Shown here piece after piece: positions 17,396 to 21,843 of a DNA stretch of 31,393 bases. Both the position numbers and the translations under genes were made by a program. The stretch is from a virus (taxonomy: Duplodnaviria; Heunggongvirae; Uroviricota; Caudoviricetes): positions 1-31,393 of IMG/VR virus record IMGVR_UViG_2778261541_000008; one strand, written 5' to 3'. Positions within the stretch are counted from its first letter, which is position 1, and every line of letters starts with the position of its first letter. The notes beneath the pieces are model-generated. The model was given only the letters and a program-made list of their open reading frames with translations, had not been told where the DNA came from and did no database searches.

Positions 17396-18196
17396 TTAGC
17401 GCGTTGCCGCGACAGGTACCAGCACACCAGCATCAAGCAATCGCTTCATCAGCCACTGCTGACCTTTGCCGGTTATACGAGTCGTGAAAGAAATCCTGCT
17501 TCCATTGCTTGTATCGATCACGGTTTCTTTAAGGGTGAAATACCCACGGGATATGTATTCTTGTTTGGGGACGTTCCTGCGTTCACCGGTTGCGATCAGA
17601 ATTCCGTTATCACGCAACCAGGTGAAGAGATAGTTTTGGCCCAGGCCGAGCACTTTGGCATAGTTGCCGATTAGAACCCCGCTGGCGGTAGCAACGCGTT
17701 CGGCGAATTCGACTTTAGGTGCATCCATCAGCATTTTTTGCTCCAGCCGTTGCTTTTGCTCTGCCAGGTCAGCAGCCAAACGGAGAGCTTCTGGGTGGCT
17801 CTTCGGAATAGCAGGTTGTAATCTTCCGGCTCGATAGTCGATAAATGTCTGGTTTACCTTCAGCCGAAACGCGGGAGAAATCCAGCCTGCGTACTCCACT
17901 GCGAGCAATTCATGGGCAAAAGTGCCGCCGCCACGGCCTTCGAACGAAACTATGCAATTCTGCATAGTTTCTTTTTCAAGCTCTTCGATGAGCTGTTTGG
18001 CTGACAGCGTTCTTAGCCATTGAGCTGGCGCTTTATGGGCACCGAGTCCGCTCGCTCTGTGTAGAGCATTAAGGTTGTAACGGCCAGCGCGGTCGGTCGT
18101 AATTTCAACACCACAAATAACAGGCAGAGTGGTTGAAGGATCGACATTTTGATGAAGGTTTGATATATTCATATCCGCATTGAATGTTTGTTGCAT
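17396..18196 (-). CDS. kilA: KilA (KilA-N domain protein with KilA-C/antirepressor-type C-terminal domain)
   Basis: 266 aa, equal to P1 KilA as recalled; GGAG-4-ATG start. The C-terminal 130 aa are clearly homologous to the C-terminus of the adjacent Ant (PEALRLAADLAEQK..., GKGQQWL...LLDAG). Confidence 0.7.
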   Translation of the reverse strand: MQQTFNADMNISNLHQNVDPSTTLPVICGVEITTDRAGRYNLNALHRASGLGAHKAPAQWLRTLSAKQLIEELEKETMQNCIVSFEGRGGGTFAHELLAVEYAGWISPAFRLKVNQTFIDYRAGRLQPAIPKSHPEALRLAADLAEQKQRLEQKMLMDAPKVEFAERVATASGVLIGNYAKVLGLGQNYLFTWLRDNGILIATGERRNVPKQEYISRGYFTLKETVIDTSNGSRISFTTRITGKGQQWLMKRLLDAGVLVPVAATR

Positions 18197-18360: not shown

Positions 18361-19398
18361 TTAACCTATTGCTACTGGTTTTAACAAACCAGCATCAAGT
18401 AGCTTGCGAGTTAACCACTGCTGGCCTTTACCCGTTAATTGGGGCGTCAGCCGTATCTGGTAGCCATTTTCATCATCCAGCACCACTTCTTTCACTGTGA
18501 AATACCCGGCGTTAATGTACTGCTGGCGCGGTACGTTTTTGCGCGCACCAAAAGCCATGAGAATGCCGTTCTGGCGCAACCATGAGAAAAGGGCGTTTTG
18601 CTTAAGTCCAACAACCTTTGCAAAGTTCCCGATCAGGATTCCATTAGCCACTGATACCCGGTCGGCAAAATCGACTTTAGGGGCAGCGGCCACCAGCTGT
18701 TGTTCCAGCTGCATTTTCTGTTCTGCCAACTCGGCAGCCAGGCGTAGAGCTTCTGGTAATGTTTGGGGGATCGATGGGGTAGGGGAGTTTGCCTGCTGCA
18801 ATTCTTCCAGTTTGTCGATCAGCGAACGGCGGACCGCTTTTGACTCGCGCGCGGCGACTCGCAGGGCTTGTTTGAAAGTCATGGTTATGACAAGCATTGA
18901 TGTTTTGTTCATTTTTTCCACTACACTTTTTGTGTAGTGCTCACCATCAAGCTCATCGAGTATTTTTCCGATGAATTTGTTGTTCCGAACCTCTGGTTCC
19001 CCACATAACTTACGCGCTTCATTGACCATCTTTAACAGTGTCAGGCTGTCGATTGTGTCTCCGGTGTTGGGGATGATATTCACGGCTGGTGCTGGCGTAG
19101 CTGACGTAACAGGTGCTGTTTTTTCAACATTCAAATTATTACCGGTCATTCTATGTGCCTCCTTTCTCATTTCTGCTGCCACTGTTGCGTAACGTAGACG
19201 TCCTTGTTCAATCAAATAATCCCTGATCTTGGCTATCAGTAGCTTGTTGATCACAGCCTTATCTGTTCGGGTATAAAAACGTCTGGTTATCATGAAGTAG
19301 TTGGCAATTGCGCCGGGGATCTCCCGTGTCGGCATACAGATTGTATGCAAGGCGATCGCTTCGGCTATTTCATTACGGGTGACGAGAGGTGTTTTCAT
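18361..19398 (-). CDS. ant: Antirepressor Ant (immunity-I region)
   Basis: 345 aa; ATGA overlap with the upstream 73-aa icd-like ORF; shares the C-terminal KilA-C/ANT domain with KilA; position between icd/c4 and kilA as in P1. Confidence 0.75.
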   Translation of the reverse strand: MKTPLVTRNEIAEAIALHTICMPTREIPGAIANYFMITRRFYTRTDKAVINKLLIAKIRDYLIEQGRLRYATVAAEMRKEAHRMTGNNLNVEKTAPVTSATPAPAVNIIPNTGDTIDSLTLLKMVNEARKLCGEPEVRNNKFIGKILDELDGEHYTKSVVEKMNKTSMLVITMTFKQALRVAARESKAVRRSLIDKLEELQQANSPTPSIPQTLPEALRLAAELAEQKMQLEQQLVAAAPKVDFADRVSVANGILIGNFAKVVGLKQNALFSWLRQNGILMAFGARKNVPRQQYINAGYFTVKEVVLDDENGYQIRLTPQLTGKGQQWLTRKLLDAGLLKPVAIG

Positions 19399-19616
19399 AA
19401 ACCCCCCTGAACGTCGGCAGAGAAGGGGAGGCTCCAGTAACTAAGTGAATTGCGCGAGTTAGTTGAAAAACGGGCTGTAAAAATGCAGGGGCCATCAGGC
19501 AATTGAGAGCGTGCTTCGTCTTCTGTTGCTGCGATAACGAAGTGATAGTGGTGTTTTTTACAGGAATAGAAACGCCAGATGAATTCTTGGCGTGCGCAAG
19601 GATTGGCATTAACCAT
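19395..19616 (-). CDS. icd: Icd-like small protein translationally coupled to ant
   Basis: 73 aa, equal to P1 Icd as recalled; GAGG RBS embedded in a sequence complementary to the upstream c4-like element. Confidence 0.55.
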   Translation of the reverse strand: MVNANPCARQEFIWRFYSCKKHHYHFVIAATEDEARSQLPDGPCIFTARFSTNSRNSLSYWSLPFSADVQGGL

Positions 19617-19669
19617 AGTTACGGCCTCACAATCAGGTTTAACAACCTGCTACCCGCTGTCAAACAGGT

Positions 19670-19760
19670 GGCAGGACGTGACAGGGTTGACAGACTGGCG
19701 ATTGTGAAACCAGCAGGCCGAAGCCTCCCCATCACGCCCCACCATAATTTGGGCGTAACG
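19670..19760 (-). ncRNA. c4: c4-like antisense repressor RNA (approximate boundaries)
   Basis: On the minus-strand transcript, GGCCU and CACAAUC (plus-strand 19700-19719) are separated by 7 nt and are exactly complementary to the contiguous GAUUGUG-AGGCC that covers the icd RBS (plus-strand 19621-19637). Ends not determinable by eye. Confidence 0.4.
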
Positions 19761-19930
19761 CGGTTTAACGGACACAAAAATACCGCAATATCGGAAATCT
19801 GCGGTTGTCCGCACAATCATTCAGGCTGTCAAACCTGGTCGTAGAATTTGCTACGACGGCGGAACTATAAGCCTGAACGATTAAAAGGTCAATATGATGC
19901 GAAAAGATAGCATTCGCGACTTAAAAATAC

Positions 19931-19947
19931 AAATTTATTAGAGCATT
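19931..19947 (-). promoter_or_regulatory. C1-type operator at the immunity-I promoter (Op51 equivalent)
   Basis: aaatttattagagcatt, 16/17 to the reverse complement of the operator consensus, in the divergent region between c4/icd/ant and the secreted-protein genes. Confidence 0.65.
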
Positions 19948-20042
19948 GTTTGTTTAATAAATACACAATTGGATCTAATAACCTCTTTTTTTAAAGGCGA
20001 AAATATGTACCCTAAATGGGTTATAAGGCAGGTGAGGTTATA

Positions 20043-20690
20043 ATGAGAAAACTATTACTACCGTTATTATTTATGGCTGGGACTGTTAATGCAGCATCAA
20101 GCGTAAAGGAGATTTGTACCGATTATACGAAATACCTTGGGCACGTTTACGGCTTTGCTGTCAGTCAAGATGAATCCATGCGCAAGAAGTTACTGTCAGA
20201 TATGAAACGCCTTAAACTTTCTGAAGCGATGGTGCAGCAAGAACTGTATAAAGTCGCAACCAACGAAAATGCTAAATATCAATATTCTCGCCTGTTAAAT
20301 CCCGACGCAAACGAGATCAATCGAAGCTCTTTCGATTATATGGTAAAGGCATGCGAAACCGCTCCTGATTTTGCTATTCCTAGCTGGGGTGTGCTGGTGG
20401 CGAGCAATGCCGTTAATAAAGAAGACGTTGGAAGAAATGGCATTGATTCAATCAGAAACTCCCCGGGAATGCGCCATCAAAACGTTCAGGGTACGCTTGA
20501 AGAACGGGCCAGGGGGCCGGGTACAAACTCCCCAATGGGAAACCTCTCCCCGGAGGAATTGCAAGAGTATAACCAACGGATGGAGCAGTATGAGAAAGCT
20601 GCACGCGAAAAAATGGAACAACAAAAAAATGGATCTCTTAATACTTTCCAGCAAGGTTTAAAAGCGCTTAATTTACCCTATGAATGGTGA
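20043..20690 (+). CDS. Secreted/periplasmic protein, candidate superinfection-exclusion (Sim-like) factor carrying a Sit-derived motif
   Basis: Start at ATG 20043 (GTGAGG RBS). Signal peptide MRKLLLPLLFMAGTVNA-AS. C-terminal segment GIDSIRNSPGMRHQNVQGTLEERARGPGT matches two segments near the Sit C-terminus. Locus corresponds to the P1 sim region next to c4. Confidence 0.55.
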   Translation: MRKLLLPLLFMAGTVNAASSVKEICTDYTKYLGHVYGFAVSQDESMRKKLLSDMKRLKLSEAMVQQELYKVATNENAKYQYSRLLNPDANEINRSSFDYMVKACETAPDFAIPSWGVLVASNAVNKEDVGRNGIDSIRNSPGMRHQNVQGTLEERARGPGTNSPMGNLSPEELQEYNQRMEQYEKAAREKMEQQKNGSLNTFQQGLKALNLPYEW

Positions 20691-20741
20691 ATATATGGTG
20701 GTTAACTAATTAAAATATTAATATCCAAAGGAGATAAATTA

Positions 20742-21218
20742 ATGCGCATCAAACGATTTTTACTAGTTCTTGCTTTGCTTACTCCGTTTTCATCAATGGC
20801 AAATGTAAGCAAATGGTCAACCGGCGAGACTCATGGTGTTCGTTCTTATGCTGTTTCCAGCAAAGATAATTATACGCTTACATTTGAGTGCGATGTTGGA
20901 TTTAATAATACGGATCCCAATCAAGTAGGAACACGACTACTCACTCTCATGAAAACAGAACCTGGCGGTGAGTCATTTGATGCTAAAAAAGAACAAATAA
21001 CGCTGAAAGTTGGTGATGATGAATATCCTATCAGTTCTATCGGTTCCTCTGTGGGTGATAGTTACTGGTATGGTTTTTGGTCAGATACCCCTGATATGGA
21101 AGTTAAAACATTCGATGCATACGTAGACGGAAAAAAAATCGCAACATTTACGCTACGTAAGGCCGCAGAGCTTTTCAACGCGGCACCTGAAGATGGCTGC
21201 CTGAAGCGCGCAAAATGA
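20742..21218 (+). CDS. Secreted/periplasmic protein of unknown function
   Basis: AAAGGAG RBS; signal peptide MRIKRFLLVLALLTPFSSMA-NV; 158 aa. Confidence 0.6.
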   Translation: MRIKRFLLVLALLTPFSSMANVSKWSTGETHGVRSYAVSSKDNYTLTFECDVGFNNTDPNQVGTRLLTLMKTEPGGESFDAKKEQITLKVGDDEYPISSIGSSVGDSYWYGFWSDTPDMEVKTFDAYVDGKKIATFTLRKAAELFNAAPEDGCLKRAK

Positions 21219-21252
21219 CCTGTCACAAATGACTACTCGTAGAATCGGTTAA

Positions 21253-21843
<591 letters not shown>

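Follow-up and report, generated by a model that had tools for sequence, protein, structure and literature searches.

Operon organization and genomic context

The minus strand of the window, by which we mean the whole 31,393-nt stretch of viral DNA analyzed here, carries a predicted operator, two promoter equivalents, a small structured RNA, the short gene icd and the antirepressor gene ant1. The operator, promoters and genes are as follows.

19931..19947, minus strand: predicted C1 repressor operator (= P1 Oc4/Op51), AATGCTCTAATAAATTT; a 17-mer identical to P1 feature L001 604-620, binding being predicted from sequence identity
19904..19932, minus strand: equivalent of the P2c4 promoter (former P51a), assigned by homology only; all columns identical to P1 L001 619-647
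19864..19892, minus strand: equivalent of the P1c4 promoter (former P51b), TTGACC-17-TATAGT; consensus scan 10/12; identical to P1 L001 659-687
19395..19616, minus strand: icd, cell-division inhibitor ORF of 73 aa; Icd is 96% identical to P1 Icd, and the icd start is the c4 target
18361..19398, minus strand: ant1, antirepressor of 345 aa; Pfam PF03374 ANT/KilAC, E=1.3e-30; 89% identical to P1 Ant1 over the 215 aa compared

The icd AUG lies at 19616..19614, and the icd stop shares an ATGA with the ant1 start at 19398..19395, an overlap that the first-pass annotation had recorded correctly. The c4-icd-ant1 operon is apparently intact, with complete icd and ant1 ORFs whose products are 96% and 89% identical to the P1 proteins. 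Icd matched no Pfam family, and a terminator scan of 19300-20100 made no call. Downstream of ant1, in the same order as in P1, lies a KilA-N+ANT protein (17396..18196, minus strand). This KilA protein and Ant1 both terminate in a PF03374 KilAC domain, and their C-termini are alike (…PEALRLAA(D/E)LAEQK…), as neighboring paralogous modules.

In a nucleotide comparison, the segment 19350-19950 matches phages JL22, RCS47, P1 and P7 at 96.7-98% identity, and P1 and P7 alone at 96.7-97%. P1 and P7 are also collinear with a 19.4-kb stretch around c4, at 97.3-97.5% identity. Given the identity of the segment and of the 19.4-kb stretch to P1 and P7, we assign the window to a P1/P7-like (Punavirus) phage-plasmid genome. 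In the explanation of the locus that we regard, taken as a whole, as very probable, the stretch singled out by the first-pass annotation (19617-19760) is the leader and regulatory core of the immunity-I (immI) operon.

On the divergent side of the operon (19960-21300), only the first 223 bp match P1, covering simA and the sim promoters. The rest of this region is 99.4% identical to phage vB_EcoM-Ro157c2YLVW, and two plus-strand ORFs with N-terminal signal-like sequences, 20016..20690 (224 aa) and 20742..21218 (158 aa), replace P1 simB/simC. From these flank matches and the allele matches described below, the immI surroundings are mosaic, with c4 alleles of the JL22 type and a flank of the Ro157c2YLVW type. 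A 2.9-kb contig labeled 'MAG: Bacillota bacterium' (JAFAFU010000019.1, L079) encodes an Icd 100% identical to that of the window and also has a P1-like c4 with a D6-type b allele; the most likely explanation is that a fragment of an enterobacterial P1-like plasmid was mis-binned.

Structure of the c4 RNA

An Rfam scan of the entire window returned exactly two matches, both on the minus strand and in or beside the flagged interval. The C4 antisense RNA family (RF01695) matches over its full length (1-87) at 19749..19664, with 68.4 bits against a gathering threshold of 45 (E=1.7e-11). The second match is the leader motif that accompanies c4.

19818..19870, minus strand: c4-a1b1 leader motif, Rfam RF03163; 58.2 bits against a gathering threshold of 46.7, E=2e-12
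19667..19743, minus strand: c4 RNA of 77 nt, GGUGGGG...GCCACC; mature ends assigned by homology to the P1 misc_RNA
19715..19726, minus strand: hairpin 1, AGGC-UUCG-GCCU, structural; includes GGCCU at 19719..19715, with P_unpaired of GCCU 0-0.08

The sequences flanking the assigned ends, AUUAU|GGUGGGG and GCCACC|UGU, are identical in P1. In the predicted fold of the c4 RNA, a long closing stem bears two hairpins; the minimum free energy (MFE) is about -42.5 kcal/mol (z=-4.6), and the MFE structure equals the centroid. In an RNAalifold consensus of 53 unique homologues, each pair of hairpin 1 and of the closing stem is formed by 2-5 pair types. Hairpin parsing based on the MFE had misfolded about 10 lambdoid c4s and was replaced by an architecture-based parser; the RNAalifold run was added separately so that the evidence for the hairpins is not circular with that parser.

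A second near-copy of the a' element described below (CUGUCA) is found at 19684..19679 on the minus strand, at c4 positions 60-65 and 2 nt past a'. It lies in the 3' arm of the closing stem, is complementary to a1/a2 (UGACAG), is base-paired in the predicted fold and may be incidental.

Protein-coding annotations overlie the c4 RNA in several public records. They include gp42 of JL22, Orf29 of phi456 and, in Stx phages, CDSs of about 1150 nt annotated as 'antirepressor', 'Rha' or 'peptidase' that span isrK and C4 (L084-L087, CDS 177-1254). In the window, ORFs run over c4 at 19650..19820 and 19619..19816, and annotations of this kind lie at 177-347 of L197 and at 176-346 of L200. These CDSs are probably spurious or over-extended ORFs.

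Recognition elements of c4 and its targets

The P1 record (AF234172) annotates a1, b1, c4 (a 77-nt misc_RNA), a2, b2, icd, ant1/2, the operator and both promoters, and all of these have homologous positions in the window. The recognition elements are listed here in transcript order.

19826..19832, minus strand: a1, UUGACAG, P1-type allele; complements a' over 7 nt; homologous to the P1 'putative a1 target site'
19811..19818, minus strand: b1, GAUUGUGC, P7-type allele; its first 7 nt (GAUUGUG, 19818..19812) complement b'; homologous to the P1 'putative b1 target site'
19700..19707, minus strand: b', UCACAAUC, P7-type allele, in the hairpin-2 loop; P_unpaired 0.93-0.99; 8-nt complement of b2
19687..19693, minus strand: a', CUGUCAA, P1-type allele, in the single-stranded multiloop junction 3' of hairpin 2; P_unpaired 0.92-1.0; 7-nt complement of a1 and a2
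19657..19663, minus strand: a2, UUGACAG, 4 nt past the c4 3' end; homologous to the P1 'target site a2'
19627..19634, minus strand: b2, GAUUGUGA, overlapping the icd Shine-Dalgarno sequence GAGG (19628..19625), 10 nt before the AUG; homologous to the P1 'target site b2'

The corresponding P1 elements, read from AF234172 and a three-way alignment, are a1 UUGACAG and b1 GUUAGUGC in the leader. P1 a2 (UUGACAG) starts 4 nt past the c4 3' end and P1 b2 (GUUAGUGA) ends 10 nt before the icd AUG; within P1 c4, b' (UCACUAAC) occupies the hairpin-2 loop and a' (CUGUCAA) the junction past hairpin 2 (AF234172). The role of a1 and b1 is given as 'putative' in this record. In the window, the a2 and b2 targets are 22 nt apart and not adjacent.

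Between b1 and c4 (19812..19768, minus strand) we find a conserved stem-loop (GCGGACAACCGCAG...UGCGGU), followed by AUUUUUGUGUCCG. Its position is that of the IsrK terminator in lambdoid relatives; a simple terminator scan makes no call there. The leader as a whole (19875..19768) folds with z=-4.3, and b1 is predicted to be single-stranded between two domains.

We estimated net interaction energies as the sum of opening energies, obtained from constrained partition functions, and duplex energies, which is a simplified RNAup-like sum and no full model of a kissing complex. On this scale, b'/b2 alone reaches -6.9 kcal/mol and a'/a2 alone -3.6 kcal/mol; a2 is partly sequestered in predicted downstream mRNA structure, at an opening cost of 3.6 kcal/mol. 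The published model with both the a and the b contact has the best accessibility-corrected energy, -8.7 kcal/mol. Unconstrained RNAcofold predicted zero intermolecular pairs between c4 and its target, because the loop-to-target contacts are pseudoknot-like in the RNAcofold model.

The b'/b2 helix could in principle run on into the 5' arm of hairpin 2, pairing UGGUUUCACAAUC with GAUUGUGAGGCCG over 13 pairs, three of them G.U, and covering the whole Shine-Dalgarno sequence. Such a helix would explain complete occlusion of the Shine-Dalgarno sequence without hairpin 1, and its duplex energy is -17.5 kcal/mol, but after opening costs the net value is -7.0 kcal/mol, no gain over b'/b2 alone. By inspection, it is also unavailable in lambdoid-type loci, where, for example, the loop GUUCUUUGGUGA and the post-b2 sequence GGCUGCC would give a G.U pair and then a G-G clash. 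We consider the extension very improbable and retain the a'/a2 and b'/b2 contacts as the basis of recognition.

Covariation of a and b elements across c4 loci

The contacts at a and b are further supported by natural variation. A contig scan with Icd as the query yielded four loci only, three of them near-identical, and was of no use for covariation for that reason. We instead compiled a P1-like set of 79 c4 loci, made up of 76 IMG/VR contigs, P1, P7 and the window. All six elements are readable in 74 of these loci, and in every one (74/74) the leader, c4 and target copies are concordant for each element. The P1 and P7 alleles of a and b are found in all four combinations, with counts of 34, 17, 12 and 11 among the 74 loci.

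A wider set, defined by c4 loci that share the 5' anchor AUUAUGGUGGGGCGU, comprises 84 unique c4+target sequences. Among them, 73 combine a b2 with at least 7 nt of complementarity to loop 2 and an a2 with at least 7 nt of complementarity to the junction. In these 73 unique loci, a2 is always 5' of b2, and there are 30 b alleles and 16 a alleles; in most loci of the wider listing, b2 lies about 10-12 nt upstream of an AUG. For 37 of 48 allele types, c4 matches both sites of its own target, whereas it does so in 0.3% of 2256 non-self pairings. Large-scale natural covariation thus backs a two-site model of c4 recognition.

The GGCCU/AGGCC complementarity

The first-pass annotation had proposed a c4-type antisense RNA aimed at the icd ribosome-binding region, and here it agrees with both Rfam matches (C4 and c4-a1b1), with the P1/P7 identity and with the P1 annotation. 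It assigned the specificity of this RNA to two blocks in the string GGCCU-GCUGGUUU-CACAAUC (GGCCU 19719..19715, CACAAUC 19706..19700), about 80 nt upstream of an icd initiation region quoted as CCUGAUUGUGAGGCCGUAACU-AUG. Both strings can be read on the minus strand, at distances of 72 and 92 nt that make 'about 80 nt' a fair description, and the blocks are exact complements of AGGCC (19627..19623) and GAUUGUG (19634..19628). In that model, CACAAUC and GGCCU, separated by an 8-nt spacer, pair with one contiguous 12-nt target, GAUUGUG-AGGCC.

The two blocks prove to be of different kinds. CACAAUC/GAUUGUG is the published b'/b2 pair and the only functional one of the two. Among dinucleotide shuffles of c4, 1% contain CACAAUC; the real block extends to 8 nt (UCACAAUC/GAUUGUGA) and co-varies with its target in every related locus. 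In alignments with P1 and P7 c4, GGCCU/AGGCC corresponds to no published element, and in the structure prediction CACAAUC is exposed (0.93-0.99) whereas GCCU is buried. The true second element, a' CUGUCAA with a2 UUGACAG, lies elsewhere and had been overlooked, along with a1 and b1. The idea of pairing through two loops is imprecise, as b' sits in a hairpin loop but a' in a single-stranded multiloop junction. The specificity determinants of the window element are corrected to b' and a', in place of b' and GGCCU.

We rejected GGCCU/AGGCC as a second recognition element on accessibility, energetics, chance, stem covariation and target covariation. The last four of its five bases are paired as the 3' arm of hairpin 1, with unpaired probabilities of 0.00-0.08 compared with 0.92-1.0 in b' and a'. 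The contact has a net energy of +1.6 kcal/mol, since the opening costs of c4 (4.4) and of the target (4.7) exceed the -7.5 of the duplex, and the complete model with CACAAUC and GGCCU reaches -4.6 kcal/mol, compared with -8.7 kcal/mol for a+b. With its flanks the second block extends to 6 nt (CGGCCU/AGGCCG), which speaks for the model, but 19% of c4 shuffles that preserve dinucleotides also contain GGCCU. Matches this long are common, given that the real c4/target pair holds four 6-nt complementary matches, CGGCCU/AGGCCG among them.

Hairpin 1 was recovered independently by RNAalifold in the 53 unique c4 sequences, with 2-5 Watson-Crick or wobble types per pair and almost no non-pairs, a pattern that is the signature of a structural stem. 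The contact with the target is confined to the P1/D6-type group, in which both partners are invariant (27/27 unique loci); this invariance was the other point in favor of the model. In contrast, 46 unique loci carry other hairpin-1 sequences, 15 in total, and in every one of these loci the 3' arm of the hairpin has at most 3 nt of complementarity to the sequence following b2. That sequence remains Shine-Dalgarno-like, (A)GGCUG or GGGGCU, in those 46 loci, as first noticed in Stx2a_1447 and ECO95. The GGCCU/AGGCC match stems from a chance identity between the 5' arm of hairpin 1 and the Shine-Dalgarno region, both of which read GAGGC. The complementarity is a coincidence, hairpin 1 is purely structural, and we regard recognition through CACAAUC plus GGCCU as very unlikely.

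That the c4 region instead codes for a small protein repressor has next to no probability in our assessment: there are ORFs of 56 aa (19650..19820) and 65 aa (19619..19816), c4 was first annotated as 'c4: CDS' (X15639) and hypothetical proteins are still annotated there (JL22 gp42, phi456 Orf29), but the strong covariance-model match with compensatory base-pair changes, variable positions that are exactly those complementary to the targets, and the misc_RNA of the curated P1 and P7 records all speak against it.

A P1/P7-type immI switch

Every testable defining feature of the P1/P7 c4 immI switch is present at this locus. The system as such is already known, and the exact c4 allele is found in a deposited genome. 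The c4/icd/ant module has been a textbook system since 1990, the year in which Citron and Schuster reportedly showed c4 to be an RNA. We are highly confident that the window encodes a P1/P7-type c4-icd-ant1 switch in which a' pairs with a2 and b' with b2, a reading that unites the elements, their accessibility and their three-way covariation.

According to this model, a transcript from the C1-controlled promoters (19932..19864) would run through the a1/b1 leader into c4, past a2 and b2, and on into icd and ant1/2. By homology to P1 and P7, the 77-nt c4 RNA (19743..19667) would be excised from this operon transcript. A passage in PMC11143913, citing Hartmann et al. 1995, describes the c4 precursor as an RNase P substrate. 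In P1, RNase P forms the 5' end of the RNA. The excised RNA is predicted to fold into the closing stem and two hairpins, hairpin 1 serving a structural role, the loop of hairpin 2 presenting b' and the junction presenting a'. The a' element would then pair with a2 just 3' of c4, and b' with b2 over the icd Shine-Dalgarno sequence. As in P1 and P7, pairing at b2 would keep the ribosome off icd. In P1, c4 RNA acting on a2/b2 represses translation of icd and ant, and icd is "apparently required for expression of ant" (AF234172); c4 blocks the ribosome-binding region and underlies the heteroimmunity of P1 and P7 (PMC12197685; PMC8198154).

Expression of ant1/2 may depend on icd translation in two ways, both drawn from related systems. 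The ATGA overlap makes translational coupling from icd to ant1 plausible, and in the homologous Gifsy-1 pair orf45-anrP, coupling through such an overlap was shown experimentally (PMC4825925). Coupling is probably not the whole story in P1, where the block would be transmitted mainly by Rho-dependent termination in untranslated icd. Biere, Citron and Schuster are said to have reported in 1992 that blocked translation of icd (orfx) leads to Rho-dependent termination within icd, and that control of ant is largely transcriptional. With the antirepressor held off, C1-mediated lysogeny would be protected, and the specificity of this protection would be carried by the a and b sequences.

Allele set and immunity specificity

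The b elements of the window depart from those of P1 at two positions, and its a elements depart from those of P7 at two positions; each difference recurs in all three copies. Judged by these alleles, the window represents a naturally occurring a(P1)/b(P7) reassortant. Phage JL22 has an identical c4, and this type is seen in 13 contigs including the window. RCS47, Ro157c2YLVW and phi456 are of the P7 type, SJ46 combines a(P7) with b(D6), and D6 combines a(P1) with b(D6). Across the P1/D6-type group there are five b and two a alleles, and nine of the ten combinations are present.

Predicted duplex energies on the window target are -7.3 at a and -3.3 at b for P1 c4, and -1.2 at a and -8.6 at b for P7 c4. 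By these values, P1 c4 is predicted to pair well with the a site of the window target but poorly with its b site, and P7 c4 to do the opposite. We tentatively raise the possibility that a and b are independently reassorting modules that make up an immunity-I code of a combinatorial kind. Should repression require both contacts, the allele set of the window could be heteroimmune to both P1 and P7 at immI, a third specificity produced by recombination. We found no description of a and b reassortment as an immunity code in the searchable literature, the primary c4 papers lying outside that search, and the idea may already be known. The a and b alleles reassort freely among P1-like plasmids. This predicts immunity-I classes beyond the P1/P7 dichotomy and bears on how P1-like phage-plasmids with resistance genes coexist and can be typed.

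Comparison with known systems

Among the closest described systems is the immI region of P1 (AF234172), which is 96.7% identical over the segment and shares with the window the operon order, the operator and promoters, the 77-nt c4 scaffold, the a elements, the icd ribosome-binding site, the ATGA overlap and the downstream kilA. It differs in b, with b' UCACUAAC and b1/b2 GUUAGUG in place of UCACAAUC and GAUUGUG, and in the divergent sim region upstream, which is largely replaced in the window. P7 immI c4 (AF503408) has the same architecture and the same b elements (UCACAAUC/GAUUGUG) as the window, but its a elements are CUGCUAA/UUAGCAG and its closing stem has one additional change. Escherichia phage JL22 (ON018986.2) carries the same a(P1)/b(P7) set, with 0 mismatches in the 77 nt of c4 and 98% identity over the 600-bp segment; its c4 is unannotated and overlain by the hypothetical CDS gp42. 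The c4 RNAs of D6 and SJ46 share the scaffold and hairpin 1 with the window. Their a elements are P1-type in D6 and P7-type in SJ46, and both have another b allele, UCGUAAGU with ACUUACGA.

More distant relatives are the lambdoid and Gifsy-1-type IsrK/C4 (STnc1160, 'orf45')/AnrP loci. As in the window, an Rfam C4 follows a leader bearing a1/b1, and b2 lies at the ribosome-binding site of a short ORF that overlaps the antirepressor start by AUGA; hairpin 1 and the a and b alleles differ. In the lambdoid and Stx loci, the leader just upstream of C4 is Rfam isrK RF01394 (L084, L085 and L087: 537-613, 638-725; L086: 514-593, 622-709). This isrK leader contains sequences of the a1/b1 type that are complementary to the local c4, such as UCACCAAAG and a UGGAAA that lies in a hairpin loop.

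The IsrK leader of Gifsy-1 is terminator-ended and acts in trans as an activator, in a published model that does without C4 (PMC4825925). The same paper describes a processed RNA of about 80 nt (STnc1160, 'orf45'') that is not named C4, and the position of this RNA appears to match that of C4 in the lambdoid loci examined. Trans-activating IsrK could be a decoy for C4, which hints at a bearing on the putative role of a1 and b1 in P1-type operons.

Other phage immunity RNAs, the P4 CI RNA (seqA/seqC) and P22 sar, are likewise processed from, or antisense to, the transcript that they control. P4 CI resembles c4 in having target copies both upstream and downstream (PMC4825925), and sar represses ant (PMC12197685). 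In contrast to these functional parallels, the sequences and structures of both RNAs are unrelated to c4: P4 CI acts by transcription termination on replication genes, and sar is a true cis-antisense transcript.
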